DNA of 64,000 bases. Origin: Bacteroidota bacterium. GTDB taxonomy: Bacteria > Bacteroidota > Bacteroidia > 2-12-FULL-35-15. Both the position numbers and the translations under genes were made by a program. Position 1 is the first letter of the stretch; each line of letters opens with the position of its first letter. Positions 10,289 through 27,984 of the stretch are shown piece by piece. The notes under the pieces were generated by a model. It worked only from the letters and a program-made list of their open reading frames with translations, searched no databases and was not told the origin of the DNA. The stretch is taken from NCBI GenBank assembly GCA_040389865.1, contig JAZJZM010000014.1:39531-103530 (forward strand), written 5' to 3'.

Positions 10289-11596
10289 TTACTCCACCTC
10301 CATATAATCAAGATCCTTCCCATGTGTTTCATCCAGAAAAAATGTTGCCATAATGGCGAGTGGAATTACAACCCCACCCACGATCATTGCTGATTGTACT
10401 ATTCCTATACCCACCGACATATAATTCCACCATATTATCATCAATACCGTAGATCCCCTCACAAAATTAGGGACAGTGGTAGTAACGGTCGACCGGATAT
10501 TGGTACCGAACTGTTCGGAAGCCACCGTAACAAAAACGGCCCAATAGCCCATTGCTATTCCCATTACAAAAATGATGCTATAAAACAATTGGGGAGAAAC
10601 TCCTGAGGCTGCAAAAAACCAGGAACAGAATATTCCCAGGCAAACCAAGGCAATTACCAGGGCCTTTTTTCTTGACTTTAATTTTTGACTGATAAAACCG
10701 GTTAAAATACTTCCGAAAGCAGCACCAATATAATGAAACATAACAGATTTGCCCGTATTCACCGAACCCGTAACTCCAAGCGCTTCACCAAATTCTTTTG
10801 AAAAAGTGACCAGGATACCAACAGCAAACCAAACAGGAACACCTACAAATATGCAGCAGATATATTTGAAAAAACGTTTACCATTTTTAAATAAACCTAT
10901 AAAATCACCTCGTTTTACCGAAGATGTTTTCATTTTTTCAAACATTCCCGATTCATGAATATAAACGCGCAACAAAAGCAATACTAATCCGAGTCCTCCT
11001 CCAACCCAATAGGCTTCTCTCCAGCCCCATTCGGCCATATAAAAAGCCAATACAGCGCCCAGTATCCCTATACCCGAAACAATACTGGTGCCCCATGCAC
11101 GCGTTTCCTTTGTCATTACTTCCGAAACAAGCGTAACCCCTATCCCCAATTCACCGGCAAGACCAAAGCCTGCTATCACACGCAGCCAGGCGTATTGATT
11201 AAGATTTTGAACAAAACCATTTGCAATATTTGCCAGCGAATAAAGTAAAATAGTAAGAAAAAGTGTAGATAATCGTCCTTTTTTATCACCTAAAACTCCC
11301 CAAGCAATTCCACCAAGAAGCATGCCTATCATTTGCATATTAATAAGGAAAATACCGGAATCTTTAATTTGGTCGGCCGGGATCCCGATCGCCTGTAAGC
11401 TCGGAACCCGAACAATACTAAATAGAATTAGATCATAAATATCAACAAAGTAACCAAGGGCGGCTATAATAACCACTATGTTGAAAGGATTGCTGCTTCC
11501 GTTTTTAAGCATAAAGCTATTTTTTGAGTGCTTAAATGTAATAATAAAAAGTCCTCTTTTTCTGAAATTTAATTTGGGTTTCAGGCACCTGTTCAT
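10289..11596 (-). CDS. MFS transporter
   Basis: 435 aa, about 12 predicted TM segments, 'GVLGDKKGR' MFS motif-like loop. Confidence 0.8.
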   Translation of the reverse strand: MNRCLKPKLNFRKRGLFIITFKHSKNSFMLKNGSSNPFNIVVIIAALGYFVDIYDLILFSIVRVPSLQAIGIPADQIKDSGIFLINMQMIGMLLGGIAWGVLGDKKGRLSTLFLTILLYSLANIANGFVQNLNQYAWLRVIAGFGLAGELGIGVTLVSEVMTKETRAWGTSIVSGIGILGAVLAFYMAEWGWREAYWVGGGLGLVLLLLRVYIHESGMFEKMKTSSVKRGDFIGLFKNGKRFFKYICCIFVGVPVWFAVGILVTFSKEFGEALGVTGSVNTGKSVMFHYIGAAFGSILTGFISQKLKSRKKALVIALVCLGIFCSWFFAASGVSPQLFYSIIFVMGIAMGYWAVFVTVASEQFGTNIRSTVTTTVPNFVRGSTVLMIIWWNYMSVGIGIVQSAMIVGGVVIPLAIMATFFLDETHGKDLDYMEVE

Positions 11597-12230: not shown

Positions 12231-12821
12231 ATGAATAGCACATTAAACGAAAAGTCAGAAAAAATAAAGAACAGTATTAAAGGTACTGCTGAGAAATCGA
12301 AAGAAACAATAAGAGAGATCATTGACTCTAACACAAAACACATTGGAGAGGCTTTGAATTCCAACAAAAAAATTGTTGATTCAATAAAAGAAAAATTTAA
12401 TCAGCAAGAAATGGACGACTCTGTTACAGATACATTGAAAAGCACTTTTGGAAAATCAGTGGAGCTTGCAGAAGACGCCCTTGACAGCATTATAAATTCA
12501 TACACACGACAAATGGAAATGAATGTAGACTTCAACACCAAGTTGGTTGATGCTCTTAAAGAATCAAACACTGCTCATCCCGAAAAAGTGTTGGAACTAA
12601 TTCACGAAAATTTTGAAGCGTCACACCAGTTGACCATCAGAAACACAAAAGAAATACTTGATTTCTACAATAAGCACACCAACCTGGCTGTAAATTTCAA
12701 TCAGAAATTTGGAGAAAGCATAAATGCTCAAATAGAATCACTTTTTAATCTTCAGAACAAAGGCTTGAATAAATTTACAAATTGGGCTTCTGAATGGTGG
12801 AAACAGGAAAGTAAAAAATAA
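12231..12821 (+). CDS. all-helical K/E-rich protein, putative phasin (PHA granule-associated) paralog A
   Basis: 196 aa of low-complexity amphipathic helix. About 90% identical to ORF 14012-14617. Lies 2.5 kb upstream of phaC. Confidence 0.6.
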   Translation: MNSTLNEKSEKIKNSIKGTAEKSKETIREIIDSNTKHIGEALNSNKKIVDSIKEKFNQQEMDDSVTDTLKSTFGKSVELAEDALDSIINSYTRQMEMNVDFNTKLVDALKESNTAHPEKVLELIHENFEASHQLTIRNTKEILDFYNKHTNLAVNFNQKFGESINAQIESLFNLQNKGLNKFTNWASEWWKQESKK

Positions 12822-14011: not shown

Positions 14012-14617
14012 ATGAACATCACATTAAATGAAAAAGCTGAAAAGATTAAAAGCAGCATTAAAGGAACTGCCGAAAAATCGAAAGAAACAATAAGAGAGAT
14101 CATTGTTTCAAACACAAAACACATTGGCGATGCGTTGGATTCTAATAAAAAAATAGTTGATTCGATCAAAGAAAAATTGAATCAGCAAGAAATCCAGGAT
14201 TCTGTTACTGACACGCTGAAAAGTACTTTTGGGAAATCAGTTGAATTAGCAGAAGATGCTCTTGATAGTATCATCAATTCATACACAAGACAAATGGAAA
14301 TGAATGTTGATTTTAACACAAAATTAGTTGACGCTCTTAAAGAATCTAATAGCGCTCAACCGGAAAAAGTGTTGGAATTAATTCACGAAAATTTTGAAGC
14401 ATCACACCAGTTAACGATTAGAAATACAAAAGAAATCCTTGATTTCTATAATAAACATACAAACCTTGCTGTGAATTTCAACGAAAAATTCGGAGCAAGT
14501 ATCAATGCTCAAATTGAATCACTATTTAATTTACAAAGCAAAGGTTTGAATAAATTTACAAACTGGGCTTCTGAATGGTGGAAACAAGAAAGTAAAGATA
14601 AAAAAGAGACCGTTTAA
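14012..14617 (+). CDS. putative phasin paralog A' (near-duplicate of 12231-12821)
   Basis: 201 aa, 'MNITLNEKAEKIKSSIKGTAEKSKETIREII...' aligns almost residue-for-residue with paralog A. Confidence 0.6.
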   Translation: MNITLNEKAEKIKSSIKGTAEKSKETIREIIVSNTKHIGDALDSNKKIVDSIKEKLNQQEIQDSVTDTLKSTFGKSVELAEDALDSIINSYTRQMEMNVDFNTKLVDALKESNSAQPEKVLELIHENFEASHQLTIRNTKEILDFYNKHTNLAVNFNEKFGASINAQIESLFNLQSKGLNKFTNWASEWWKQESKDKKETV

Positions 14618-14754: not shown

Positions 14755-15231
14755 ATGACTAACACTTACAAATCAAAAAGCAAGAACAGTATTTTATGGT
14801 TATTAAGCACTGCTACAGTGTGTTTATTAGCAGTATCGAACAGCGCTTACGCTCAAAAAAAACCAGCACCTGATAAGCTTTTGGCCGGAAAAATTTATAC
14901 AATTGAACTGGCTGAACAAGGAAAAAAAGCGGGTGACCCTGAACCGGATGAACTAACTTTTAAATCAGATAAGTTTACATCAAAAGTAATGAAACTCGAT
15001 GAAAAATTCCTTCCTTCGGCTTATACTGCCGAACTTGATACTTCTGATGCAGCTAACAAAATAATTACTTTTGAAACTGAAAGTAAAAACCCGGGTGAAG
15101 AACTTTTAAAATGGACAGGCACTATTACCGGAGAAGAAATTGAAGGTACTGCTGTATGGACAAATAAAAAAGGTAAACTGAAAAGAGAATACACTTTTAC
15201 CGGCACCTTAAAAGGTAAAAAGAAGAAATAA
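14755..15231 (+). CDS. secreted hypothetical protein
   Basis: Signal peptide 'LLSTATVCLLAVSNSAYAQ'. 158 aa, Lys-rich. Confidence 0.5.
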   Translation: MTNTYKSKSKNSILWLLSTATVCLLAVSNSAYAQKKPAPDKLLAGKIYTIELAEQGKKAGDPEPDELTFKSDKFTSKVMKLDEKFLPSAYTAELDTSDAANKIITFETESKNPGEELLKWTGTITGEEIEGTAVWTNKKGKLKREYTFTGTLKGKKKK

Positions 15232-15239
15232 AAATAAAA

Positions 15240-15280
15240 AGCCCCTCCCATCCTCCCCGAAGGGAGGGGTTTGTGTTTAC
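15240..15280 (+). terminator. intrinsic terminator
   Basis: 'cccctccc atcctccccgaa gggagggg' followed by 'tttgtgttt'. Confidence 0.6.
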
Positions 15281-15331: not shown

Positions 15332-16363
15332 TTGAGTGGGGCTTCTTTTATCAATTATCAAATGAGCGCAGCAAAAAAAAAGATCATTCGTAATGTAAAA
15401 ATTTCAGGCACCGGCTCTTATGCGCCTTCCGGAGTTTATACAAATGAATATCTTGAAACCATTGTAGATACTAAAGCTCCATGGATTTATGAAAACCTGG
15501 GTATCAAACAACGACATATTGTTGCAAAAGGAGAAACCACATCTGACCTTGGTGCAAAAGCAGCTCTCAAAGCCATTGCTGATGCTAAACTTAGCCCGGA
15601 AGACATTGACCTCATCATTTTTGCCACTACCACGCCTGATATGAAGGCGCCCTCCACAGCTTGTTTTGTTCAGGAAAAAATAGGCGCTTTTAATGCCGGA
15701 GCCTTTGATGTGGTAGCGGTTTGTACCGGTTTTTTATATGCGATAAGTCTGGCAACGGATTGTTTAAGCAATGGAAATTACAAACATATCCTTGTAATAG
15801 GAGCTGATACTTTTTCAACAATAACCGATTGGACGCGCAGAGATGCTGTGTTTTTTGGTGATGGTGCAGGAGCTGTTGTTCTTTCCCGTGTAGATGATGA
15901 ATCAGGTTTTGTTATTTCCAAAGTAGGTGCTGACGGACGTGGAAAGATGATCTGGCACATCCCTGCCGGTGGATCACAACACCCGATTGATGAAAACACA
16001 GCAAAAGACCGTTTGCAATATTGGCAAATGGATGGAAAAGGAATATACAACACCGCTGTGCGCGTATTACCACAGGTTATTACAGAAGTATTAGCCGATT
16101 CTGGATTAAAAATGGATGATATCAAATACATGATCCCTCATCAGCCAAGTCTTAAGATCCTTAAGAAAACTGCCGAACTTATAAATTTTGATTTTGATAA
16201 AGTATTGACCAATATGGATCAATACGGAAATACTTCTGCAGCATCTATTCCAATTTTATTGGATGAGACCAATAAAGCCGGAAAGTTAACCCGTGGCGAT
16301 ACCTTATTATTTGCCGCTGTTGGGTCTGGAATGGCTTGGGGTGCAATGATATTAAAATGGTAG
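15332..16363 (+). CDS. KAS-III (FabH)-like condensing enzyme
   Basis: Cys block 'DVVAVCTGFLYAISLA', His block 'IPHQPS', Asn block 'YGNTSAAS', giving an intact Cys-His-Asn triad. Its stop TAG abuts the phaC ATG. Confidence 0.8.
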   Translation: MSGASFINYQMSAAKKKIIRNVKISGTGSYAPSGVYTNEYLETIVDTKAPWIYENLGIKQRHIVAKGETTSDLGAKAALKAIADAKLSPEDIDLIIFATTTPDMKAPSTACFVQEKIGAFNAGAFDVVAVCTGFLYAISLATDCLSNGNYKHILVIGADTFSTITDWTRRDAVFFGDGAGAVVLSRVDDESGFVISKVGADGRGKMIWHIPAGGSQHPIDENTAKDRLQYWQMDGKGIYNTAVRVLPQVITEVLADSGLKMDDIKYMIPHQPSLKILKKTAELINFDFDKVLTNMDQYGNTSAASIPILLDETNKAGKLTRGDTLLFAAVGSGMAWGAMILKW

Positions 16364-18292
16364 ATGAAGAAAACTGAAATAAAAAACACTACAAAAATGA
16401 AGAGCAAGCCGAAAAGTCCGAAGTCTGAAATGAAAACTGAAAACACTAAAAAAACAGAAAAAGCTAAAACAACGGAAAATACTAAAAATACAGAAAAAAC
16501 CGAAAAAACAAAAATGGAAGAATTAACAGAGAGTATCACAAAAGCAAGTCAGAAAATTATTCAAAATTATTTTGAAAATAAATCAGGCGGTAACCATGAT
16601 AACAGGGATATAGCTCATACATTTGGTGAGTTAGGTACCAAATTAATGAACGAGCCCAAAGAAATGGAGAAAGTTCAGGAACTATACAAGGGATTCTTTA
16701 ACAGTCAGCAGGAATTATGGAAACGAATTACTGATCGCCAATCTAAACCGGAAGAATATAGTCCGGTTATTCAACCTGCCGAAGGTGATAAACGTTTTAA
16801 AGCACCTGAATGGGATGAAGCACCGTATTACTTTGATTTTGTTAAGCAAAATTACTTATTGGTTTCTCAATTAATGAAACAGATCATTGCTACTTCTGAA
16901 ATAGATGAAAAAGTTAAAAAGAAATTGAACTTTTATTCTCAACAGTATATTGATATGCTTTCGCCATCCAATTTTATTGCAACAAACCCTGAAGCAATTA
17001 AATTAGCACAGGAAACCAATGGTCAGAGTTTAATTGACGGATTTAAAAACTTATTGACCGATATCGAAAAAGGTGGTATCACTCAAACGGACATGTCAGC
17101 ATTTGAAGCTGGTAAGAATATAGCAACCACGCCTGGTGCAGTCGTTTTTGAAAATGAATTGATGCAACTTATTCAATACACCCCTTCTACTAAAAATGTG
17201 TTTGAAACACCTGTAGTAATAATACCACCTTGGATCAACAAATATTATATTCTTGATTTGCGTCCTGAAAATTCTTTTGCAAAATTTGTGGTGGATCAAG
17301 GATTTACAACCTTTATCATTTCCTGGAAAAATCCAAGTGCGGACTTACGTCACATCACTTTTGATGATTATGTGGAGATGGCTGCTTTAAAGGCTTTTGA
17401 AGTTGCAAAAACAATTACGAAATCTAAAAAAGTAAATACTATTGGATATTGTTTAGGTGGAACGTTGCTTAGCACTTCACTTGCTGTACTTGCTGCTCGT
17501 GAAAAAACAGAGGAAAACCCTGTTAACACTGCAACATTCCTTGCCACAATGATCGACTTTTCGGATGTTGGCCCAATGGGTGATGTTATTGACAATGCCT
17601 TATTAAAAAAACTAGAACGTGGCGAATTACTAGAGCAAGGCGTTATGCATGGTCATGATATGGAAAAAGCTTTCAATCTGATCAGAGCAAATGACCTGGT
17701 ATGGAGCTTTGTAATAAATAATTATTTGAAAGGCAAAACACCTACTCCTTTTGATGTTCTTTATTGGACAAATGATAATACGAATTTACCTGCAAAAATG
17801 TATTTGTATTATTTGAGATACATGGTTTTGGAAAATAAATTAAGCAGAAAAAATGCGTTGCGTATTTGTAATACCCCTATTGATATTGGCAAGATAGACA
17901 TTCCTGTTTACGTAATTGGCCTTCAGGAAGACCATATCGCACCACCACAAACAACATTTACAACAACAGAGCTTGTTAGTGGACCGGTTGAATTTATACT
18001 TGGCGGATCTGGTCACGTAATGGGTGTTGCTAATCCTCCATCAAAAAAGAAATATGGTTATTATTTAGATGGTAAACTGGAAAATGGATTTGCTGCATGG
18101 AAAGACTCTGCTAAATTTCACGAAGGTAGCTGGTGGACTGCATGGACAGAACGTCTTGCAAAAAAATCAGGAAAACAAATTGTAGCTGCTAAAACGTTGG
18201 GTAATGCTAAATTCAAAGTTATAGAAGCTGCTCCGGGCAGATATGTAAAAGAAAAATGTGCTCCGCACCATCCAGAAAATGGTAAGCATTAA
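16364..18292 (+). CDS. phaC: class-I poly(3-hydroxyalkanoate) synthase
   Basis: Lipase-box 'GYCLGGTLL' and alpha/beta-hydrolase core. 642 aa with a roughly 50-aa 'KTEK/TENTK' Lys-rich N-terminal extension. Confidence 0.85.
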   Translation: MKKTEIKNTTKMKSKPKSPKSEMKTENTKKTEKAKTTENTKNTEKTEKTKMEELTESITKASQKIIQNYFENKSGGNHDNRDIAHTFGELGTKLMNEPKEMEKVQELYKGFFNSQQELWKRITDRQSKPEEYSPVIQPAEGDKRFKAPEWDEAPYYFDFVKQNYLLVSQLMKQIIATSEIDEKVKKKLNFYSQQYIDMLSPSNFIATNPEAIKLAQETNGQSLIDGFKNLLTDIEKGGITQTDMSAFEAGKNIATTPGAVVFENELMQLIQYTPSTKNVFETPVVIIPPWINKYYILDLRPENSFAKFVVDQGFTTFIISWKNPSADLRHITFDDYVEMAALKAFEVAKTITKSKKVNTIGYCLGGTLLSTSLAVLAAREKTEENPVNTATFLATMIDFSDVGPMGDVIDNALLKKLERGELLEQGVMHGHDMEKAFNLIRANDLVWSFVINNYLKGKTPTPFDVLYWTNDNTNLPAKMYLYYLRYMVLENKLSRKNALRICNTPIDIGKIDIPVYVIGLQEDHIAPPQTTFTTTELVSGPVEFILGGSGHVMGVANPPSKKKYGYYLDGKLENGFAAWKDSAKFHEGSWWTAWTERLAKKSGKQIVAAKTLGNAKFKVIEAAPGRYVKEKCAPHHPENGKH

Positions 18293-19491
18293 TTGGAATA
18301 ACCATTAGATTTCAATATTAGTTTTGATCGTTAAAATTGAAGTTTCAGGTTTTTATGTTTGGTAACAAACATAAAAATCTGAAACTTTTTTTATTATTAA
18401 ACTGTGCTATAAATTCTTAAAACATCTTTTGAGCTTGAGTTCAATCAATAAAATAAAATTGAAAAAAGAATTTTTATTTTGACGTTTCCCTTTCTTGAAG
18501 AAATAAAAAGAGTGGCTCGGCCAAACTGTCAATACCTTCGTGTAATGTGGCTGCAGCCCATTTTGGTCTCATTGCCGTCTTGCTTTAGGACTTTAATCAT
18601 AACAAATTAGATAATTTTCGCTAACTTTACTATGTGAAAAAATTTGCTTACATATTTATTCTATTATCATGTTTTGGGTTTAGATCCATGCATGCAGAAT
18701 CTGTGCAAATGTTCAAGGCAAAGTACAGCTCTGAATTAAATAGATCTGAAAAAAAACATATTCAGAAGACTCCCGCGCTTTCATTAAGTATAATTACTTC
18801 GAAAGAGTCGGACGAAAATCCATTTTCAAAAAAAAGAAAGAGAGCAAAAAAAGGCCTATCACCAATCTTTTTTTGTCTTACAGATCAACCCCATTTAAAA
18901 ATTATTTTTTTTGAAATTGACTTAGTTTATGCTCCCCAGTCATTTCATTTCTCACACCTTCATTACGCCTGTGGTGAACGTGGTCCGCCCACCATTTCCC
19001 TTTCTTAAAACCCCACATTTTATTTATTCATTTTAGAACATAGCGCTATGCGTTTGTTCCGCCAACAATTTTAATCATGAAAAGCTGGAAAGTTGTCATA
19101 TACTATTTCGGAGATACACTCGAAGTAATAATCGAAGCAAGATCTTATGCTGAGGCCTGTTTCTCAGCAGAGCGGATCTATTCAGGTTGCACTATTAACG
19201 AAATTTCCGAGATCAAATATTAAAAAAAAATCCATTTTTTTTACCGAGACTAACAACATCACCTTTGGGATATGTTGGTTTTCTGTATGTAACAATTTGG
19301 AAAATAAGGGTTCACTATTGAAAAAACAGAGCATTAATTTTAATAAAAAATTAAAATCAGGCCTATACACAAACAGCATAAAACCATTGACATTAGACTG
19401 TTTCACTCATATATGTAATTAAAAAAAAAGCCCTCCTGAACATTAAAGATCTAATAGGGAATATTTTTTTATGATTCATATACGCAATTCG

Positions 19492-19499
19492 TATATTTG
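19492..19499 (+). promoter_or_regulatory. candidate -7 element 'TATATTTG' upstream of phaB, adjacent to the 'atacg-n5-cgtat' inverted repeat
   Basis: 'atacgcaattcgtatatttgtcatcg' lies about 55 bp upstream of the ATG at 19551. Confidence 0.35.
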
Positions 19500-19550
19500 T
19501 CATCGATTTAAAATTTAGAATTTAATCTTTAGACTTTTTCAATATATTTT

Positions 19551-20318
19551 ATGAGAGAAAAAAATAACAAAGTTGCATTGGTTACAGGCGGTACAGGTGG
19601 TATGGGTACTGCAATATGCGAAAGATTATATAAAGATGGATATACAGTAGTTGCCAATTACAAAGATTTTACCAAGGCGATGAAATGGAGAGAAGAAGCA
19701 AAAAAATGGCGTGATGACCAACTTAAAATGGGTTTTGATTTGAAAATTGTTCAAGGAGATATTTCAAATTGGAAATCTGCCGAAAAGATGATGAAGCAGA
19801 TCAATGATGAAGTTGGACAAGTGGATGTTTTGATAAATAATGCCGGTATAACAAGAGATTCAGCGCTTCATAAAATGAGCCCTGAGCAATGGTATGAAGT
19901 TATTGATACCAACCTTAACAGTGTATTTATTTGCACTCGCCTTGTAATTGAAGGTATGATAGCAAAAGGATGGGGACGTATTGTAAGTATCTCTTCTGTG
20001 AACGGACAAAAAGGACAATTCGGACAAACAAATTATGCTGCAACTAAAGCAGCTATGTATGGTTTCTCCAAATCACTTGCTTTGGAAGTTGCTAAAAAAG
20101 GTATTACTGTAAATACGGTTTCTCCGGGATATGTTGGCACTGCTATGGTAATGGCTATAAAAGAAGAAATACGTGATAAGATCATCGCTCAGGTACCACA
20201 AGGGCGCTTAGGTTCACCGGAAGAGATTGCAGGTGCTGTGGCTTATTTAACATCTGAGGAAGGACGTTATATTACAGGTGCCAATATTGCTATCAATGGT
20301 GGGTTGCATATGTTCTAA
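19551..20318 (+). CDS. phaB: SDR-family acetoacetyl-CoA reductase
   Basis: 'VALVTGGTGGMGTAI' Rossmann motif, 'NNAGIT', catalytic 'YAATKAA'. 255 aa with pha-locus context. Confidence 0.8.
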   Translation: MREKNNKVALVTGGTGGMGTAICERLYKDGYTVVANYKDFTKAMKWREEAKKWRDDQLKMGFDLKIVQGDISNWKSAEKMMKQINDEVGQVDVLINNAGITRDSALHKMSPEQWYEVIDTNLNSVFICTRLVIEGMIAKGWGRIVSISSVNGQKGQFGQTNYAATKAAMYGFSKSLALEVAKKGITVNTVSPGYVGTAMVMAIKEEIRDKIIAQVPQGRLGSPEEIAGAVAYLTSEEGRYITGANIAINGGLHMF

Positions 20319-20335: not shown

Positions 20336-20395
20336 CAAAACCCAACAAAAATGAATATTGATTTTATTCATTTTTGTTGGGTTTTTCTTTTTCTA
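20336..20395. terminator. strong bidirectional intrinsic terminator
   Basis: Perfect 19-bp stem 'aaacccaacaaaaatgaat / attcatttttgttgggttt' followed by 'ttctttttc'. Sits between convergent phaB and the ATP-grasp gene. Confidence 0.8.
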
Positions 20396-20435: not shown

Positions 20436-21914
20436 CTACAACATCTTAAAATCCCCGGCCTCCATCAAATCTTCTTCAGTTAATAATCCTGCATCAATAA
20501 TATCTGATTTGTATTGAGCACGTAAAGCTCTGATCCATCTTTTGCCACGGTCGGATAGCTTAAAATCATCGGACATCAAACGGCCTCTCATTACAAGAAT
20601 CCCCAGATCTGCACCTTCGTATAAATAGCCATCTTTTTGTGTGATCTGAAAAAAAAATGCTTCATTATCATCTACCACGGATTGACGGTGAGCATCCATC
20701 TTTTTGAATTTTATTTTTCCATTTTTTTTCATTTCCCAAATTCCGGATGATGGAGCTTCGGTAACAATTGCTAATGTTTTTTTTGTATGCTTAATTATCA
20801 GTTGACTCCAACTGTCATTATTTTCAGGTTGTGCCCAGCGGTCAGTTAATTCCTTTACATCTATTTCGTAAGGAACATCCATCCATTCCAATAAGTGAAA
20901 CAGAAAAAGAGGCACATCTTTCATTGCAAACAGTGCATGATTAGTTATGGAGCTTGCCCCTGAAATCCTTGGATTCAGCTCACCAAGATAAATTTCACCA
21001 TTATCCTGATCGATTAAAAAATCAAGTTCAAAATATCCTTTATATCCTTCCTTACGAAGCTGATCACCAAAAAGCTGAGTATATTTTGTTGCTTTTTCTC
21101 GTATGTCGGGAGTAAAGGCATTTGCATAAACCTCATTTCCGCACCAACCGCCTTTGTATGGGGTTAATTCTTTAAAACCTACCAATTCGGTCATTAAAGG
21201 AGCAACCAGGGTTCCGTGTTTTGTAACACATCCTTCAATAGCAGTTCCATAACAATTGATACGCTTCATTATTTTAACTTCTTTCTCCTTAATGATTTCT
21301 TCTTTGTGAAGATCGAATTCTTCTTCATTGGAAATAAAAAAAGTTGTATGTCCCGAATCACCAAATGGGGTTTGAACCACTAAATTTTCACCAAGCTTTT
21401 CAGAAATTTTACGTAATTGAGCATAATTTTCTAGTGAAGAAAGTACATAGGGAACACAAGCTACACCTGCCTTTTCAGCTATCCGGTTTGTATTTACTTT
21501 ATTGTCGAGAAAAGTTCTAAGCTTAGCGGAAGGAAAACATACATCAAGCCCCAATACTTTTGCAGCCTCTTCTGTTTTTTCATTGAACATCAAAAACAAA
21601 GCCTTCCCGGCTTTTCCATCCACACTTCTTGATTTTATAAAATCTTTTACTTCTGCATGTTGAAGTAAATAGTTATTTATATCCTCAATGCTTTGGAATT
21701 CTTCGTGAAGCATCTCTACTTTCGGAGAAAACAAATTAGGATGTAAGCCGTCAAAAGAATCGATATGACTGATGTATTTAAAATTATTTATCCATTCATC
21801 AATCCCTAATAAATTAAAGCTGGTAGCACTTATAAAGTAAATAGGTGTTTCATTAGATTTGAAAAACTGTTTTATTTCAGATAATCCTTTTAAAGTTTTT
21901 TGCTCTTTCATCAT
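20436..21914 (-). CDS. ATP-grasp-fold ligase of unknown specificity
   Basis: 492 aa. Central block 'GENLVVQTPFGDSGHTTFFI...' and 'GYFELDFLIDQDNGEIYLGELNPRISG' resemble ATP-grasp B/C subdomains. Lies downstream of and co-oriented with the decarboxylase. Confidence 0.55.
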   Translation of the reverse strand: MMKEQKTLKGLSEIKQFFKSNETPIYFISATSFNLLGIDEWINNFKYISHIDSFDGLHPNLFSPKVEMLHEEFQSIEDINNYLLQHAEVKDFIKSRSVDGKAGKALFLMFNEKTEEAAKVLGLDVCFPSAKLRTFLDNKVNTNRIAEKAGVACVPYVLSSLENYAQLRKISEKLGENLVVQTPFGDSGHTTFFISNEEEFDLHKEEIIKEKEVKIMKRINCYGTAIEGCVTKHGTLVAPLMTELVGFKELTPYKGGWCGNEVYANAFTPDIREKATKYTQLFGDQLRKEGYKGYFELDFLIDQDNGEIYLGELNPRISGASSITNHALFAMKDVPLFLFHLLEWMDVPYEIDVKELTDRWAQPENNDSWSQLIIKHTKKTLAIVTEAPSSGIWEMKKNGKIKFKKMDAHRQSVVDDNEAFFFQITQKDGYLYEGADLGILVMRGRLMSDDFKLSDRGKRWIRALRAQYKSDIIDAGLLTEEDLMEAGDFKML

Positions 21915-21920
21915 TTTGTA

Positions 21921-22036
21921 TTTAGATCTTGGATTTTAGATGTTGGACGTTAGATGTTGGACGTTAGATGCTGGATTTTAGATGGGTTTAAATGTGTGGC
22001 TCTAATATCTAAAATCCTATATCTAACATCTAACTA
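21921..22036. repeat. palindromic 'tagatgttgg' satellite between the decarboxylase and ATP-grasp genes
   Basis: Forward 'ttttagatgttggacgttagatgttggacgttagatgctggattttagatgg' and inverted 'ctaaaatcctatatctaacatctaac'. Confidence 0.7.
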
Positions 22037-24778
22037 CTATTTCTTAGCTTTAGCTTTACTCTCATTTAACTGCATCATCGCTCCCATTGCAGAAATTGTG
22101 TTTTTACGATTTAGCGCCTCTTCAGTAAATACTTTCAAACCAAGTTCAACACGGTAACCATGAATTTCCTTTACATCCAAAGCGATCATGAATCGGATAA
22201 TTTCTTCACTAACCACCTGCCCCGGCACTAATATTGGAAAGCCTGGTGGATATGGGATTACAAAGGAAGTAGAAACCAGCTCTCTTTTATTTGCTAACTC
22301 ATTTAAACATTGACTCAAGGGAACATAATCACACAATTCCTCTTCATACGCTAAAAAAAATGCTTCTCTGATATTACCACCCGGTACTCCTGGCGAAGCC
22401 TGAAATGAACGATGGAAATAGCTGAAATCAGGTAATGGCGGCACATCATTTATCAATGACAAAATCTGTTTTTGTGAAATTTCAGATTCCCTTTTATTTA
22501 ATGATCGGTTACTTTCATCCAATTCATCAGCAATTTGTAACAACGCATTTATCAAAAATGTAACACTGCCCCGTGTTGTACCAATATTGGTCATTAACAA
22601 AACAGTGTTGCGTGATGTTTTATTTACCTGGATATTGAAACGATCCATTAAGTAAGTATTCTTAAACGCATCCCCTGTTATTCCTGCCTTTCCAACTGAA
22701 AGGGTAATTTTTGTCGGATCCAATACAAACTCATCTTTCTCCCAGGATTCTTCCATCCGGGCCCATCCATCTTCAACAGTGTAATATTCGTTTGGTCCGC
22801 ATTCACGGTACTCCTCAGGTATAGTGTCTTTTACGGTAAGTATATGAAAGTACTTATTTAATTTAGGGTGGTTTTGTATCGTAGAACGCACGATCATTGC
22901 CATCTCAATACTTTTTTCAACCAATTCATATCCTTCCAATTCAACCTGTCTGCGCCCAGCATCCATTGATGCTAAGATCTGATAATTGGGTGAAGTGGTG
23001 GTATGTGTCATGTAAGATTCCTGAAAATTATCTGCAACCCTGCGGCTATACTCTTCATCCCAGATCTGTATCATCGATCCCTGGCGGAAACAAGAAAGTG
23101 TTTTATGTGTACTTTGTGTTGCATACACCCTGATCTTAACCTTTTCCGGATCAGGCATAGAAGGGATTTCATTGGGTTTTAACCCGGCAATATGTTCTTT
23201 GTATTTTGTTTTATACTCTTCGCTCCGGTATTTATGAAATAATTTTTGTGCCACATACATTCCTGTTCGTTGCTTGTAGGTGTATGTAAAACTTGCAAAT
23301 GCAAACCAGGCTTCATCCCATAAAAAAACCATATCGGGTTTAATGGCAAGCACTGTTTCCATTACCTTTTCAACATTATATACCAATCCATCGAAAGTAC
23401 AATTGGTAAGTAATAACATTTTCACTTTATCTAATCTGCCCGCTGTTTTTAACGCGATCAGTTTTTCTTTAATAACTCTCAATGGCACTGCGCCATACAT
23501 CGAATATTCTTCAATAGGATAAGAATCCAAATACGCGGGAAATGCGCCTGCTAAAACAAGTCCATAGTGATGCGACTTATGACAATCTCTATCTACGAGT
23601 ACTACATCACCCGGTTTTATTAATGCTTGTTGAACAATTTTATTTGCAGTAGATGTTCCGTTGGTAACAAAAAATGTATGCTCTGCTCCATAAGCTTTCG
23701 CTGCTTTTTCCTGAGCCTTTTTTAATGGACCTTTGGGTTGTAAAAGCGAATCAAGACCTCCATTGGTTGCCGATGTTTCTGCTAAAAAAACATTTCTCCC
23801 ATAAAACTCACCAAAATCAGCTATCCATCGCGATTTAAATACGGAGTTCCCTCTGGATATCGGCAATGCGTGAAACACGCTTGTCGGTTTTTTGGAGTAT
23901 TCTGTTAATGCAGTATAGAAAGGCGTTTCGAAGCGTTCATTGATTCCACTAATAATTGTTAAGTGAAGCTCCTGAACATCTTCCATCCGATAAAATATTC
24001 TTCTGAATGCCTTTTGTGTAGAATCTTTTAAATGAGTTAATGAAGTATCGGTGATATAATAAATATCTAATTCAGGTCGGAACTGATGGATATATTTCCC
24101 TAAAAGAGGCCCGATTTCAGCATCCGTTACATCCGACAGATCGATTTTTAAAACATTTTGAATAAATGGTTTTATAAGTTTGGTAATATTTGTTGAGGAA
24201 TGCAAAGGCGCATATCTAATACATGCGGCTTGTATGTTGTAATTAAAAAAAAGACATATTAAGGCATCCTGAAAAGAATGCTGCACCACCAGATCATACG
24301 TTAAGGAACTATTCGGATTAATCAGTTCCTTTATTTTATTTTTAAGAACCATCTCTTCATTAGCAGACATGTCTTCTACATAGAGTACTTCAAAATAATT
24401 TTTTTTAGAGCTGCTTGAATGTTTATCTTTTTTACTGTCGAGAGGAATGCCGGCATTATAATTTTCACCCAACATCTCCGGGTGAGTTCTATAATTATCG
24501 CTTACCAAAAGTTGAACTATTTCAGCAACCTGATTGCTAACGGCTTTTAATTCGCCCTTTTTAACAGATTTAATAATTCTCCTGACAAGGGTAGACCCCG
24601 GAAAAGAAAAATATTGCTCGATGCTTAATAAGTTTTGGAGAATTTCGTTCAATTCACTTAAACGTTCATCTAATAATGTTTCATTTGATTGAATACGGGT
24701 TATCAGATTACTTTTTTCTTTAAGCTCATTCCACAAATCAATTCTTAACTGATTTATATTGTAATGTTTTGAATTCAT
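22037..24778 (-). CDS. large-form Orn/Lys/Arg decarboxylase family (PLP, fold-I, OKR_DC_1) protein with N-terminal extension
   Basis: PLP-lysine block 'YATQSTHKTLSCFRQGS' and 'FFVTNGTSTANKIV' major-domain motifs. 913 aa against about 715-755 for AdiA/LdcC, with about 120 extra N-terminal coiled-coil residues. Confidence 0.8.
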   Translation of the reverse strand: MNSKHYNINQLRIDLWNELKEKSNLITRIQSNETLLDERLSELNEILQNLLSIEQYFSFPGSTLVRRIIKSVKKGELKAVSNQVAEIVQLLVSDNYRTHPEMLGENYNAGIPLDSKKDKHSSSSKKNYFEVLYVEDMSANEEMVLKNKIKELINPNSSLTYDLVVQHSFQDALICLFFNYNIQAACIRYAPLHSSTNITKLIKPFIQNVLKIDLSDVTDAEIGPLLGKYIHQFRPELDIYYITDTSLTHLKDSTQKAFRRIFYRMEDVQELHLTIISGINERFETPFYTALTEYSKKPTSVFHALPISRGNSVFKSRWIADFGEFYGRNVFLAETSATNGGLDSLLQPKGPLKKAQEKAAKAYGAEHTFFVTNGTSTANKIVQQALIKPGDVVLVDRDCHKSHHYGLVLAGAFPAYLDSYPIEEYSMYGAVPLRVIKEKLIALKTAGRLDKVKMLLLTNCTFDGLVYNVEKVMETVLAIKPDMVFLWDEAWFAFASFTYTYKQRTGMYVAQKLFHKYRSEEYKTKYKEHIAGLKPNEIPSMPDPEKVKIRVYATQSTHKTLSCFRQGSMIQIWDEEYSRRVADNFQESYMTHTTTSPNYQILASMDAGRRQVELEGYELVEKSIEMAMIVRSTIQNHPKLNKYFHILTVKDTIPEEYRECGPNEYYTVEDGWARMEESWEKDEFVLDPTKITLSVGKAGITGDAFKNTYLMDRFNIQVNKTSRNTVLLMTNIGTTRGSVTFLINALLQIADELDESNRSLNKRESEISQKQILSLINDVPPLPDFSYFHRSFQASPGVPGGNIREAFFLAYEEELCDYVPLSQCLNELANKRELVSTSFVIPYPPGFPILVPGQVVSEEIIRFMIALDVKEIHGYRVELGLKVFTEEALNRKNTISAMGAMMQLNESKAKAKK

Positions 24779-25776: not shown

Positions 25777-27984
25777 TTGGCAACAACACTCGAAAAACTA
25801 AAGACAAATTATTGGTTTCAATCTATTTTGAATAGCTATAGTTTGATGTTTTTTTCTTTAAATAATGTTCTTGCGGCTATTATTTTAATAGTGACTTTTT
25901 TTTCGCCTTATGTAGGATTGTCGGGCTTGGCAGCAATCGTTCTAATAAACCTATCTGCCTATTTTATAGGATTTAACAGGGATGAAATACTGAACGGACT
26001 TTTTGGTTTCAATGCCTTATTTCTTGGCCTTGCTTTGGGGTATGAGTTTTCATTTAACCTACCCTTTATAGCATTATTTATAACAGCGGTTTTGATCCTG
26101 CTTCTAATTACTGTATGGCTGAAAGGATTGTTTTCCCTATACAATTTGCCATTTTTATCCTTTCCATTCATTCTTACGTATTGGATCATTTCTTTAGCAG
26201 CCTCCAATCTTACAAATGTTTATTTAGATGAAGATCACATTTATATTGCAAATGAACTGATACTTAATCAATCCTCTTCATTTTATCAGTTCGTTCATTC
26301 TTTCGACAACATCAACGTTTTCCCGTTTATTCTTATTTACTTTAAAACGCTTGCAGGTACTTTTTTTCAAAGTAGTGTTTTAGGCGGTATGTTAATTGCA
26401 GCCGGATTACTTTACTTTTCACGTATTGCTTTTTCCCTGAGCCTCATAGGTTTTTCTTCTGCTTTTTTTTTCTATTCAATATTTGGTGCGGATGTAAATG
26501 ACTTAAATTATAATTTACTTGGATCCAACTTCATGTTTCTCGCAATTGCGATTGGTTGCTTTTTTCTAATTCCCAACACCTATAGTTATATAACCGTTCT
26601 TATTCTCACACCTATACTAATGTTGGTATTATTATCATTTGGTAAAATGTTGGCAGTTTTTCAACTCAAAGCCTTTACCTTTTCATTTAGTGTTATCTGC
26701 ACCGCTTTCCTCTTTACATTGAATCAACGATGGTTTCAAAAGTATTTACATGTTGTTACCATTCAGTATTTTTCAGCAGAAAAAACCATTTATAAATACC
26801 TGAATTCCATTCAGCGTTTCAAAAACGAACATCTTCTTAAGATCATACTTCCATTTTCCGGAGAATGGAATGTAAGCCAGGGCTATGATGGAAAAATAAC
26901 GCATTTAGGCGATTGGAGTAAAGCCTTGGATTTTGTGATCGTTGATTCCAAATCCAAAACCTATCATGAGCCATCCAACTACAGAGAAGGTTTTTCCACC
27001 GAAAATTTTTATTGCTATAATAAAGAGATCTTTTCTCCTTATGATGGTTATGTGTATGACATCATTAATACTGTTGAAGAAAATGATGTTGGGGAAGTGG
27101 ATACAGCGCATAACTGGGGAAATACTGTTATTCTGAATCATCTTAATGGATTGTTTTCACAAATAAGTCACATTAAAAAAGATTCATTTAATGTTTTTAT
27201 CGGACAATATATTTATAAGGGCTCATTTATTGCAACCTGCGGAAATTCGGGACGTTCGCCTGAACCGCATATCCATTTTCAATTGCAAACAATTCCCTCT
27301 ATTGGGGCAAAAACATTAGCCTACCCTATTTCATATTTTATTGAACGGGAAGGAAAAAAGAAAACGCTAAAAATTTCGGAGATCCCTAAAGAAGGCTCCT
27401 TCATAAGTAATGTGCAGGTAAATGAAATATTGATCTTAAGCTTTTCATTTTTACCGGGACATAAAATTACCTTTCAAAAGGAAAACACCGCTTCTACTAT
27501 CATCTGGGAAGTTTTTACAGATGCCTGGAACAGAACGTATATTTATTGCCAGGAAAGCAAATCATACGCTTACTTTATCAATGATGGTGTAATGTTATAT
27601 TTTACCGATTTTGAAGGGGATCGAAAATCATTGTTGTTTAATTTCTATCTGGCGGCTTACAGGCAGCTGCTTGGATATTATGAAAACATTAAAATAAAAG
27701 ACAATGTTCCTTTAATTCATTTCAATAGTAAATGGCTACAGTTTTTTCAGGATTTTGTTGCTCCTTTTTACCTGTTCACGAAAGCCAATTTCAGCTCCAC
27801 ATTTACGTATACTGATAATATTTATGCCCCGCAAAAATTAATTATTAATGCTGAAGTTGAAACTAAACTTATAAACTATACATTTAAAAAAATTAATTTT
27901 GAGTTTGAATTAAAGGACAATAAAATTCATCGTTTCACCATTCATGGTAAAAATAAAACCGAATCCTATATACTCAATCGATAA
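25777..27984 (+). CDS. polytopic membrane protein fused to an M23 (LytM) peptidase domain
   Basis: TTG start. Residues 1-330 form about 9-10 TM helices. M23 blocks 'HLGDWSKALDFV', 'DGYVYDI' and 'GNSGRSPEPHIHFQLQ', then about 230 further residues. Confidence 0.7.
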   Translation: MATTLEKLKTNYWFQSILNSYSLMFFSLNNVLAAIILIVTFFSPYVGLSGLAAIVLINLSAYFIGFNRDEILNGLFGFNALFLGLALGYEFSFNLPFIALFITAVLILLLITVWLKGLFSLYNLPFLSFPFILTYWIISLAASNLTNVYLDEDHIYIANELILNQSSSFYQFVHSFDNINVFPFILIYFKTLAGTFFQSSVLGGMLIAAGLLYFSRIAFSLSLIGFSSAFFFYSIFGADVNDLNYNLLGSNFMFLAIAIGCFFLIPNTYSYITVLILTPILMLVLLSFGKMLAVFQLKAFTFSFSVICTAFLFTLNQRWFQKYLHVVTIQYFSAEKTIYKYLNSIQRFKNEHLLKIILPFSGEWNVSQGYDGKITHLGDWSKALDFVIVDSKSKTYHEPSNYREGFSTENFYCYNKEIFSPYDGYVYDIINTVEENDVGEVDTAHNWGNTVILNHLNGLFSQISHIKKDSFNVFIGQYIYKGSFIATCGNSGRSPEPHIHFQLQTIPSIGAKTLAYPISYFIEREGKKKTLKISEIPKEGSFISNVQVNEILILSFSFLPGHKITFQKENTASTIIWEVFTDAWNRTYIYCQESKSYAYFINDGVMLYFTDFEGDRKSLLFNFYLAAYRQLLGYYENIKIKDNVPLIHFNSKWLQFFQDFVAPFYLFTKANFSSTFTYTDNIYAPQKLIINAEVETKLINYTFKKINFEFELKDNKIHRFTIHGKNKTESYILNR

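Follow-up and report, generated by a model that had tools for sequence, protein, structure and literature searches.

A KAS-III gene conserved upstream of phaC in a PHB cluster without a thiolase gene: a candidate acetoacetyl thioester supplier in an uncultured clade of Bacteroidota

Introduction

The synthesis of PHB is taught as a succession of three steps catalyzed by a thiolase, a reductase and a synthase. Because the first of these steps is unfavourable on thermodynamic grounds, engineers have replaced it with the irreversible step of NphT7, which is paid for with ATP. Acetoacetyl-CoA synthases of the NphT7 type condense acetyl-CoA with malonyl-CoA, not with malonyl-ACP, and lack thiolysis activity. 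FabH enzymes have a connection of their own with these polymers through an acyl-ACP:CoA transacylase mechanism, as in E. coli engineered with fabH and phaC. NphT7 came to be recognised from its place in the genome, its gene coding for a homologue of KAS-III and being retained where a cluster of mevalonate-pathway genes ends (PMC5509993), and the engineered NphT7-PhaB-PhaC pathway makes PHB (PMC11539682). The genomic logic that links a KAS-III to PHB supply in the present work is the same as that by which NphT7 was discovered (PMC5509993).

The locus described here lies in a 64-kb stretch of DNA from a Bacteroidota bacterium, the whole of which is called the window. An earlier note, based on the letters of the window, had described a FabH-like gene translationally coupled to phaC and had proposed that it encodes an NphT7-type acetoacetyl-CoA synthase replacing the PhaA thiolase. 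A literature search of incomplete coverage returned no paper describing a natural KAS-III gene adjoining phaC.

The PHB cluster of the window

The features of the locus are collected in Table 1. The KAS-III protein is an exact match to MES2140229.1, annotated 'MAG: beta-ketoacyl-ACP synthase III [Bacteroidota bacterium]', and contains the Pfam domains ACP_syn_III and ACP_syn_III_C. Among solved structures the FabH chain 4ryb comes closest to it (270 bits), the solved FabH chains spanning 224-270 bits. The intact Cys-His-Asn triad that had been read from the sequence is indeed there: the motifs AVCTGF, HQPS and GNTSAAS are all found, and Cys121, His260 and Asn290 align with C112, H244 and N274 of E. 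coli FabH and are invariant across 100 aligned sequences. The protein exceeds the cut-offs of two FabH models, NF006829 (371 bits, cut-off 249) and TIGR00747 (337 bits, cut-off 292). The HMM score was nevertheless dropped as a discriminator. NphT7 (Streptomyces sp. CL190, UniProt D7URV0), which shares the KAS-III fold family and the triad, also passes NF006829 (321 bits) and misses TIGR00747 by 3 bits only, so that a match to generic FabH models is weak evidence against an NphT7-like role.

Table 1. Features of the PHB cluster and its borders (positions in the window)
Feature	Positions	Strand	Basis or remark
MFS transporter, syntenic left border of the cluster	10289..11596	-	Pfam MFS_1
Phasin-like protein A, 196 aa	12231..12821	+	weak TIGR01985 phasin match, E 0.0016
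Phasin-like protein B, 250 aa	13102..13854	+	sub-threshold Pfam Phasin_2 match, E 2e-4; syntenic in relatives
Phasin-like protein A', 201 aa, paralogue ~93% identical to 12231-12821	14012..14617	+	tblastn cross-hits
158-aa protein, hydrophobic N-terminal segment resembling a signal/lipoprotein leader	14755..15231	+	syntenic in relatives
Predicted GC-rich terminator-like hairpin, between the 158-aa ORF and KAS-III	15251..15268	+	consensus scan
KAS-III (FabH-family) condensing enzyme, 333 aa	15362..16363	+	FabH HMMs, triad, database match; ORF 15332..16363, likelier start ATG 15362 (alternative TTG 15332), end TAG 16363
Class I PHA synthase PhaC	16364..18292	+	TIGR01838 667 bits (cut-off 623); conserved start likelier ATG 16397
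9/18-nt tandem repeat encoding the K/T/E-rich PhaC N-terminal extension	16433..16514	+	TRF
Predicted strong terminator-like hairpin, 20-bp stem and T run, 48 nt past the phaC stop	18340..18387	+	pattern match
Spacer of ~1.2 kb without convincing gene, phaC to phaB	18388..19550		short ORFs without relatives only
PhaB-type acetoacetyl-CoA reductase, 255 aa	19551..20318	+	TIGR01829 357 bits (cut-off 302)
Predicted long hairpin, readable as a terminator on either strand, separating phaB from the convergent ATP-grasp gene	20338..20384		

The KASIII-PhaC-(gap)-PhaB arrangement also stands as it had been described. PhaC combines a PhaC_N domain with an alpha/beta hydrolase domain (Pfam), and its residues Cys363, Asp523 and His551, the first of them within a GYCLGG sequence (G-x-C-x-G-G box), are invariant in an alignment of 12 sequences. 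Their spacing of 160 and 28 residues matches that of the triad of C. necator PhaC, C319/D480/H508. The reductase remains below the cut-off of the FabG equivalog model (TIGR01830, 264 bits, cut-off 298). Its gene begins 1.26 kb after phaC in the window, where the relatives L008 and L075 have ~130-240 nt, and an Rfam scan covering 9-26 kb of the window, including this spacer, found no family. The 158-aa protein has no Pfam or NCBIfam match.

The absence of a PhaA thiolase holds for the 64-kb window and for the loci of the clade. A Pfam scan of 40 of the 41 window ORFs of at least 150 aa detected neither a thiolase nor a second KAS-III, a tblastn search with a PhaA-type thiolase gave no match at E<1e-5 in the six frames of the window, and no thiolase was found at any of the clade loci. 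Unlike a housekeeping FabH gene, the KAS-III gene has no fabD, fabG, acpP or plsX nearby (the 64-kb window yielded no fab, acp or plsX gene) and is set between phasin genes and phaC. The GC content, considered as a sign of recent transfer, gave no clear signal (~40% for KAS-III, ~35% for phaC, ~30% for the phasin genes and 38-40% for the other window genes).

Conservation of the KAS-III gene in the clade

All seven relatives with contigs reaching far enough (L003, L004, L007, L008, L009, L011 and L075) have the gene order phasins-158-aa ORF-KASIII-phaC-phaB, and along this series the identity to the window falls from 99 to 79% for KAS-III and from 98 to 76% for PhaC. The same order is found in L019, where phaC appears frameshifted. 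Most members of the clade (L003-L009, L011 and L019) encode a copy of the 158-aa protein, 56-97% identical, just upstream of KAS-III, and the MFS transporter occupies the same position in L003, L004, L008, L009 and L011 (76-94% identity).

In the flanks of 83 other phaC loci, 59 of which have at least 1.5 kb of sequence upstream of phaC, no KAS-III gene was found (0/83), and a thiolase is present in 17 of them. The closest outgroup clusters, L079, L080, L083 and L084, are organised as phasin-phaC-phaB(-hydrolase-3HB dehydrogenase). They have in common with the window clade orthologous phasin-like genes, PhaC (71-75% identity) and PhaB (82-85%), phasin-like protein A being encoded upstream of phaC in these four clusters and in the outgroup cluster L090. 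The putative depolymerase and the 3-hydroxybutyrate dehydrogenase encoded in other members of the window clade are likewise orthologous to those of the sister clusters. The sister clusters and the classical phaC-phaA-phaB clusters are devoid of KAS-III, and in two of the former, L079 and L084, the last gene encodes an acetyl-CoA C-acyltransferase of 393 aa (TIGR01930, 449 bits), whereas in the clade of the window the cluster contains KAS-III but no thiolase. Since KAS-III is kept within the clade and is missing from the nearest outgroup clusters and from the 83 other phaC loci, it was presumably recruited into a pre-existing PHB cluster. These data support the view of KAS-III as a conserved part of the PHB cluster of this lineage.

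Phylogenetic position of the KAS-III

The phylogeny does not bear out the assignment to the NphT7 type. KAS-III and NphT7 are 36% identical and were never grouped exclusively in 200 NJ bootstraps. The window clade nests instead within a KAS-III family of the FCB group (100% bootstrap), among stand-alone ('solo') KAS-III genes (99.5%), and NphT7 is at best sister to this whole family (89.5%, on a thin sampling of two NphT7-clade sequences). From its sequence the enzyme is a member of the FCB-group KAS-III family and not an NphT7-clade enzyme. The FabH proteins encoded next to fabD and fabG form a different branch, and a candidate core FabH of Bacteroidota, found with an enoyl-reductase-like gene among housekeeping genes, belongs to a separate and more distant one. 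A 7-residue insertion, 'PAGGS...QY', was rejected as a derived feature joining KAS-III to NphT7; it also occurs in fabD/fabG-linked FabH of Planctomycetota and Kiritimatiellota, and E. coli has a deletion.

The helix that docks ACP (E. coli positions 248-258) also separates the two enzymes. In NphT7 it is acidic (V249, D252, E253, G256 and E257, net charge -3), and the two NphT7 sequences suggest that the loss of the basic helix is a defining feature of this type. The KAS-III of the window has K249, K252 and K253 (net +2). In its clade, Lys is found at position 249 in 9 of 11 sequences and Gly in the other two, K252 and K253 are present in 11/11, and the mean net charge is +1.8, compared with +1.9 in fabD/fabG-linked FabH and +0.7 in the 'solo' sisters, relative to which the clade gained basic residues. 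This suggests that KAS-III still docks ACP, which counts against a CoA-only, NphT7-like reading. On the other hand, R249, invariant in fabD/fabG-linked FabH (46/46), is relaxed to K/R/G/A in the superclade of the window KAS-III, and this was counted in favor of the role in PHB supply proposed below.

Like E. coli FabH (1HN9), the KAS-III of the window has the equivalents of W32 and R151 and a basic residue at position 249. Unlike it, K214, K256 and K257 are replaced by N, E and L, R36 by Asn, and F87, the residue that closes off the primer pocket of the E. coli enzyme, by Ala. The last substitution is common to the whole FCB family, and that of Arg by Met at position 85 is specific to the window clade. 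The clade-specific substitutions at otherwise conserved sites number only six, and there is therefore no sign of a shift in specificity upon recruitment.

KAS-III modules in polysaccharide loci

The nearest large homologous subgroup (~60% identity) consists of KAS-III genes that adjoin a FabG/PhaB-like reductase and an acyltransferase in polysaccharide loci. This was the case in the four contexts examined, near none of which an ACP gene was called, and the hosts belong to Bacteroidota, Cloacimonadota and Delongbacteria. These abundant FCB proteins of 330 aa were considered as the housekeeping FabH and rejected on account of this neighborhood (4/4). The formation of such modules by the nearest subgroup points to the KAS-III subfamily as an accessory supplier rather than a housekeeping FabH. 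The modules and the PHB cluster would share, in addition to a common KAS-III family, a ketoreductase partner and the production of a 3-hydroxyacyl thioester for a downstream consumer, which is a sugar acyltransferase in the former and PhaC in the latter. To our knowledge, these modules are uncharacterised so far; the literature search, within its incomplete coverage, returned no paper on KAS-III modules for 3-hydroxybutanoyl sugars.

Proposed role of the KAS-III and alternative explanations

KAS-III may provide PHB synthesis with its acetoacetyl thioester through a decarboxylative condensation, a role that we put forward tentatively and that would make it a functional analogue of NphT7 outside the NphT7 clade. 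The ancestor of this uncultured Bacteroidota clade would have placed the gene directly upstream of phaC in an older cluster comprising phasins, phaC, phaB, a putative depolymerase and 3-hydroxybutyrate dehydrogenase. Acetyl-CoA would acetylate Cys121. His260 and Asn290 would then assist the decarboxylation of a malonyl thioester, whose irreversible condensation would yield an acetoacetyl thioester. PhaB would reduce this product to (R)-3-hydroxybutyryl-CoA, to be polymerised by PhaC. KAS-III would thus do the job of the PhaA-type thiolase of the sister clusters. In the most likely version of this proposal, acetoacetyl-CoA would be formed directly from malonyl-CoA, the presumed malonyl carrier, by an NphT7-like chemistry that arose independently. 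A product at the CoA level is favored because the PhaC and PhaB orthologues in L079 and L084 adjoin a thiolase and the intermediates should therefore be CoA thioesters. As with NphT7, the enzyme is encoded in an acetoacetyl-CoA-consuming cluster without a thiolase gene (PMC5509993), but the pathway is that of PHB instead of mevalonate and the host a member of Bacteroidota instead of an actinomycete. The engineered 'non-canonical' NphT7-PhaB-PhaC pathway (PMC11539682; PMC3899235) likewise unites a KAS-III-type enzyme, an acetoacetyl-CoA reductase and a class I PHA synthase. It is man-made and relies on NphT7, whereas the present arrangement is natural and involves an unrelated KAS-III branch.

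A housekeeping FabH merely relocated in front of phaC would, by contrast, be an ordinary initiator of fatty-acid synthesis, acting on acetyl- or branched acyl-CoA and malonyl-ACP, and the PHB precursors would come from a thiolase encoded elsewhere. The match to both FabH models, the basic docking helix with Lys at the R249 position, the few clade-specific substitutions and the genes inserted before phaC in two genomes all agree with this explanation. So does the supply of thiolases: among the matches listed, PhaA-like enzymes 74-89% identical to that of L079 are very common in Bacteroidia MAGs. When the thiolase of the sister lineage was used as query and the NCBI accession blocks were compared, the ten named matches listed (at least 74% identity) all came from other submissions, and ten lack an accession. 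In addition, the enzyme nests, as an orthologue would, within 'solo' KAS-III genes without pathway context (L002, L077 and L078), and the matches listed include none in the range of 62-79% identity, where a paralogue would be expected, from NCBI MAGs of this lineage. The genome-collection scan, which detects close relatives only, gave one locus per genome. KAS-III could therefore be the only copy of the subfamily in the lineage, simply displaced. Such a relocation is nevertheless unlikely, even if it has to be reckoned with, given that all genomes of the clade, including those with only 76-79% protein identity, have the gene between the phasin genes and phaC, that no gene of fatty-acid synthesis (fab, acp or plsX) was found with it in the window, and that the closest large relatives of the subfamily are clearly accessory. 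The candidate core FabH of Bacteroidota lies on its distant branch, and a housekeeping FabH dependent on ACP would hardly be expected to have the Gly that the 'solo' sisters show at the R249 position.

The basic docking helix, kept and even strengthened in the clade, would also be expected of a malonyl-ACP-dependent KAS-III making acetoacetyl-ACP, from which the C4 unit would reach PhaB and PhaC through the acyl-ACP:CoA transacylase activity of the enzyme itself or through another transacylase. In engineered E. coli, the PHA content rose upon overexpression of fabH (Taguchi 1999, as cited in PMC11539682), and PHA was reportedly obtained from glucose when engineered fabH and phaC were expressed together (Nomura 2004, as listed in PMC3503839). 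Such a bridge is rather improbable, requiring as it does an extra transfer step for which the cluster contains no gene. The close orthologues of PhaB and PhaC in L079 and L084 stand beside a thiolase and should act on CoA thioesters, and no ACP gene was called near any examined member of the subfamily. Finally, the Ala at the F87 position and the Met at position 85 could reflect a different primer (propionyl-, butyryl- or branched acyl-CoA) giving C5-C6 monomers for copolymers, or a product unrelated to PHB. This is very improbable: the former substitution is common to every branch of the family and hence not specific to the clade, PhaB and PhaC are of the ordinary short-chain types according to their HMMs, and the rest of the cluster gives no hint of a different product.

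If KAS-III does supply PHB synthesis as proposed, this conserved natural KASIII-phaC-phaB cluster would mean that bacteria made the substitution of the engineers themselves. Low-GC Bacteroidota of cold freshwater and groundwater would contribute a second and unrelated family of acetoacetyl-CoA synthase candidates, and the lack of phaA in a metagenome could no longer be equated with the lack of the pathway, which would change the scoring of PHB capacity. A broader claim is possible but on balance doubtful, namely that this is the first natural thiolase-independent, malonyl-CoA-driven PHB pathway and that the whole accessory FCB KAS-III branch, PHB-linked, stand-alone and in polysaccharide modules, consists of acetoacetyl-CoA synthases independent of NphT7. 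An ACP-dependent enzyme would provide a natural case of PHB monomers drawn directly from the initiation of fatty-acid synthesis; a relocated housekeeping fabH would make the finding an ordinary one.

The KAS-III-phaC junction

In the window sequence, the TAG of KAS-III (16361-16363) immediately precedes the ATG that opens the phaC frame at 16364, exactly as the earlier note had described it (16361-16366). The translational coupling that it deduced is overstated, resting as it does on a choice of start codon that the relatives do not share. The phaC frame offers three more ATG codons (16397, 16430 and 16514). The PhaC of the window has a database counterpart (P0137, 631 aa, 100% identical) that begins at 16397, and this MKSKPKS start corresponds to the first ATG of phaC in the relatives L004 and L007. 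The conserved start is thus probably ATG 16397. Among the relatives compared, the abutment of TAG and ATG is limited to the window and its 99% relative L003. The two genes are separated by 39-156 nt in five other relatives, and by inserted, unrelated genes in two (919 nt in L011 and 3870 nt in L019); a tight coupling is therefore not required.

KAS-III and phaC are probably co-transcribed in the window, to judge from the hairpin upstream of KAS-III, the gap of at most 33 nt between the two genes and the strong terminator predicted after phaC, which would end the KASIII-phaC transcript. The upstream hairpin is not conserved in the alignment of the relatives, and an alignment of seven relatives revealed no conserved promoter motif upstream of KAS-III. 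A TACTTTG sequence (TAnnTTTG-like), not conserved in the relatives, was noticed by eye ~40 nt upstream of ATG 15362 in the window. The N-terminal repeat extension of PhaC, for its part, varies in length among the relatives.

A KAS-III gene kept in a PHB cluster

The KAS-III protein of the window is identical to MES2140229.1, [quoted passage not shown], encoded on a 300-kb contig; the host is an uncultured member of the Bacteroidota and the DNA of the window is low in G+C (about 30-40%). The ORF listed in the earlier note is present with its TTG start, the annotated ATG at 15362, which yields 333 aa, being the more plausible one. Both KAS-III Pfam domains were found, the cut-offs of two generic NCBIfam FabH models are exceeded (NF006829, 371 bits vs 249; TIGR00747, 337 bits vs 292), and among solved structures the closest are FabH enzymes (chain 4ryb, 270 bits; E. 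coli FabH, 224 bits). The motifs AVCTGF, HQPS and GNTSAAS, noticed earlier as signs of an intact triad, all occur in this protein, in which Cys121, His260 and Asn290 align with C112, H244 and N274 of E. coli FabH.

The following gene encodes a class I PHA synthase, PhaC (TIGR01838, 667 bits, cut-off 623), whose Cys363, Asp523 and His551 are invariant in the PhaC alignment, and a PhaB-type reductase gene lies downstream. Upstream of KAS-III are three phasin-like genes, with weak phasin matches, and a gene whose 158-aa product has a hydrophobic segment near its N-terminus. The absence of a thiolase (PhaA), first claimed for the locus, extends to the whole 64-kb window: Pfam scans, which covered 40 of the 41 ORFs reaching 150 aa or more, detected neither a thiolase nor a second KAS-III, and a six-frame tblastn search for a PhaA-type thiolase gave no match.

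Two of the phasin-like genes flank the third, different one, and their similarity marks them as a recent local duplication; some relatives carry a single copy. Neither a convincing gene nor an Rfam match lies in the gap between phaC and phaB, which begins with a terminator hairpin. The gap is long in L003 and L004 also, two close relatives of the window, and measures only about 130-240 nt in more distant ones, which points to an insertion in the sublineage of the window.

Positions of the features discussed, in the window unless another locus is named
Locus	Position	Strand	Feature	Remarks
Window	12231-12821		Phasin-like gene	About 93% identical to 14012-14617
Window	14012-14617		Phasin-like gene	
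Window	15251-15268		Hairpin ahead of KAS-III	Pattern match only
Window	15332-16363		KAS-III ORF	From TTG
Window	16364-16531		N-terminal extension of PhaC	Lysine/threonine/glutamate-rich, low-complexity
Window	16433-16514		9/18-nt tandem repeat	Encodes part of the extension
Window	18293-19550		phaC-phaB gap	1.26 kb
Window	18340-18387		Terminator after phaC	20-bp stem; pattern match only
Window	19551-20318		PhaB-type acetoacetyl-CoA reductase	TIGR01829, 357 bits, cut-off 302
Window	20436-24778	-	ATP-grasp protein and decarboxylase	492 and 913 aa
Window	25777-27984		Urea transporter/M23 peptidase ORF	
Window	37534-38421	-	Partial aldehyde dehydrogenase	295 aa
Window	38486-39958	-	Full-length aldehyde dehydrogenase	490 aa
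Window	44497-51750	-	Largest ORF	2417 aa
L002	7974-10993		Acetyl-CoA synthetase and solo KAS-III	Same strand, 98 nt apart
L011	6996-7878		Genes between KAS-III and phaC	
L019	4482-8166		Genes between KAS-III and phaC	
L072	8001-10527		KAS-III module, polysaccharide locus	
L074	7156-9681		KAS-III module, polysaccharide locus	
L162	7001-9249		KAS-III module, polysaccharide locus	
L163	7001-9525		KAS-III module, polysaccharide locus	

Linkage of KAS-III to phaC across genomes

One genome per species was scanned, and close KAS-III relatives (82-99% identity) turned up in nine Bacteroidota/Bacteroidia MAGs, whose sources were groundwater, lakes and the like; one further relative, at 79%, was recovered from assemblies of sequencing runs. 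Wherever the contig reaches, the order is constant (phasin-like genes, 158-aa ORF, KAS-III, phaC, phaB) and is bordered on the left by a divergently transcribed MFS transporter gene, other ORFs replacing the 158-aa ORF in the relative L075. The more distant members of the clade have hydrolase and dehydrogenase genes after phaB. The identities of KAS-III, PhaC and PhaB drop in parallel, to 85/80/91% in the relative L008 and 79/76/89% in L075, which argues that these genes were inherited together.

The comparison set consisted of 83 other phaC loci with PhaC 40-77% identical, 80 from a metagenome scan and three from PhaC-homologue look-ups. None of the 83 (in 59 of which the sequence ahead of phaC spans at least 1.5 kb) has a KAS-III match in its flanks, and 17 have a thiolase. 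The nearest outgroup clusters, L079, L080, L083 and L084, encode PhaC (71-75%), PhaB (82-85%) and orthologous phasin-like proteins, together with an alpha/beta hydrolase weakly matching intracellular PHB depolymerase and a 3-hydroxybutyrate dehydrogenase (TIGR01963, 330 bits, cut-off 307). All four are devoid of KAS-III and two of them, L079 and L084, carry instead a 393-aa acetyl-CoA C-acyltransferase at their downstream end (TIGR01930, 449 bits), whereas the clade of the window has KAS-III and no thiolase in the cluster. The linkage of KAS-III to phaC is thus real, and its simplest history is an insertion before phaC, in the ancestor of the clade, into a type of cluster that works elsewhere with a thiolase. 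In this clade, a PHB cluster of a kind that otherwise either uses a thiolase or has none acquired KAS-III and has retained it stably.

The KAS-III/phaC junction

The earlier note had described the two genes as translationally coupled. The TAG of KAS-III (16361-16363) does directly adjoin an ATG of the phaC frame (16364), but outside the window this abutment recurs only in L003, its 99% relative, and the conserved phaC start is probably the ATG at 16397. Indeed, the stored PhaC protein P0137 (631 aa) begins there, and the same start, MKSKPKS, is the first phaC ATG in L004 and in another relative, L007; further in-frame ATGs occur at 16430 and 16514. The segment between the candidate starts is a K/T/E-rich extension, partly encoded by a tandem repeat; in close relatives the extension can be as short as about 8 residues or as long as about 90.

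In five other relatives, KAS-III and phaC are 39-156 nt apart. An unknown 158-aa ORF and a LytTR DNA-binding protein gene are inserted between them in L011, and at least three unrelated genes (YadA-like protein, outer-membrane barrel, M43 peptidase) in L019. The inserted peptidase of L019 bears a T9SS tail, and the phaC of this locus, recovered as two tblastn segments, is apparently frameshifted. A KASIII-phaC transcript is plausible in the window on the basis of the hairpin before KAS-III and the terminator after phaC; the region upstream of KAS-III is not conserved in the alignment of relatives.

Phylogenetic placement

The reference sequence of NphT7, the acetoacetyl-CoA synthase of Streptomyces sp. 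CL190, is an exact match to UniRef100_D7URV0, and that of E. coli FabH was verified against the PDB. The KAS-III of the window shares 36% identity with NphT7 and 37% with E. coli FabH. In a neighbour-joining tree of 100 sequences (200 bootstraps on a 53-sequence subset), the phaC-linked clade is supported at 100%, its union with three stand-alone ("solo") KAS-III genes (66-71% identity) at 99.5%, and the addition of a large group about 60% identical to the window protein at 78.5%. The whole KAS-III family of the FCB group (100%) takes in a Flavobacteriales branch, located among housekeeping genes and followed by an enoyl-reductase-like gene that reaches only 106 bits with FabI models. FabH enzymes of the fabD/fabG-linked type from other phyla (40-45% identity) cluster on their own.

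NphT7 is sister to the whole FCB family (89.5%, with few outgroups sampled), and its exclusive grouping with the phaC-linked clade has a bootstrap of 0%. This result and the nesting in the FCB family place the window enzyme outside the NphT7 clade, so that the NphT7-type assignment first suggested is not upheld as regards descent. The enzyme belongs to the FabH family, in an accessory branch specific to the FCB group. Generic FabH HMM scores were dropped as a discriminator, NphT7 itself passing one model and nearly passing the other.

In a single case, L002, a solo KAS-III (69% identity) lies downstream of an acetyl-CoA synthetase gene, a pairing that makes sense for a condensing enzyme acting at the CoA level.

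KAS-III modules in polysaccharide loci

The four contexts examined for the 60% group (Bacteroidota, Cloacimonadota, Delongbacteria and one 2.2-Mb contig) are all polysaccharide loci, and its candidacy as the housekeeping FabH of Bacteroidota was rejected on that account. Each KAS-III is followed, 2-10 nt downstream, by a 225-227-aa FabG/PhaB-like reductase, and an acyltransferase (three hexapeptide, one GNAT) immediately precedes or follows the pair; no ACP gene was called within 7-8 kb on either side of the four modules. Such a module looks like a self-contained source of a 3-hydroxyacyl thioester that would go into N-acylated sugars, presumably the 3-hydroxybutyryl one. Sugars of this kind are already known (PMC4869667); no paper on the module was found in the literature searched. 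The PHB cluster follows the same logic, KAS-III paired with a ketoreductase, and these contexts indicate that the branch of the window gene serves time and again as an accessory source of C4 units.

Possible roles of the enzyme

On the malonyl carrier, CoA or ACP, the sequence evidence points both ways. R249 of E. coli FabH, the key ACP-docking arginine, is conserved in 46/46 fabD/fabG-linked FabH and 9/10 enoyl-reductase-linked genes; in the 60% group the position holds K, R, G or A, and the solo genes have Gly there. This relaxation favors a CoA-level product, as do the lack of an ACP gene in the modules of the subfamily and the close orthology of PhaB and PhaC to enzymes adjoining a thiolase. 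Against it, the docking helix of the phaC-linked clade is basic like that of true FabH and unlike that of NphT7 (net charge +1.8, +1.9 and -3, respectively). Lys occupies position 249 in 9 of the 11 members and is invariant at 252 and 253, basic residues having been gained relative to the solo sisters (+0.7), and the helix looks ACP-competent. Only six substitutions at otherwise conserved sites are specific to the clade (E41Q, A55G, R85M, Q124D, F125C and I126L, E. coli numbering), which suggests no obvious change of specificity at recruitment; the window enzyme probably does whatever the solo enzymes do.

The proposal that KAS-III replaces PhaA is partly supported, by its stable retention in the PHB cluster and its absence from the 83 other phaC loci, and fails as regards kinship with NphT7. 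A direct supply of acetoacetyl-CoA, making the enzyme a functional analogue of NphT7, is an almost even prospect and our tentative preference. A route to PHB through acetoacetyl-ACP, with which the basic helix would agree and the modules without ACP would not, seems unlikely. Somewhat doubtful too, if a little less so, is a relocated housekeeping FabH without a dedicated role: the scores with FabH models would fit it, and the conserved linkage would sit poorly with it. Some other function takes up the remaining probability.

With regard to further copies, the match list holds no KAS-III homologue at 62-79% identity from the NCBI MAGs of the lineage, which could thus have a single copy of this subfamily. 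A sister-lineage thiolase search returned more than 120 relatives at at least 74% identity among the matches listed; the ten named NCBI matches have accession blocks other than those of three annotated MAGs of the lineage, and ten further matches carry no accession. The KASIII-phaC-phaB arrangement has a well-known engineered equivalent, NphT7-PhaB-PhaC (PMC11539682), and no report of a natural counterpart was found in the literature searched, whose coverage was incomplete.

Other features of the window

The ATP-grasp protein exceeds the cut-off of the "biotin carboxylase" equivalog NF005096 (740 bits, cut-off 684), Pfam finding ATP-grasp domains only. Its gene adjoins that of an Orn/Lys/Arg decarboxylase, and the pair is limited to the nearest relatives, L003 and L004. 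Next to the full-length aldehyde dehydrogenase, a shorter ORF matches the first half only of the domain; it is possibly a pseudogene or else a duplicate that has been truncated. Finally, a urea-transporter domain and an M23 peptidase domain are fused in a single ORF, which is unusual.
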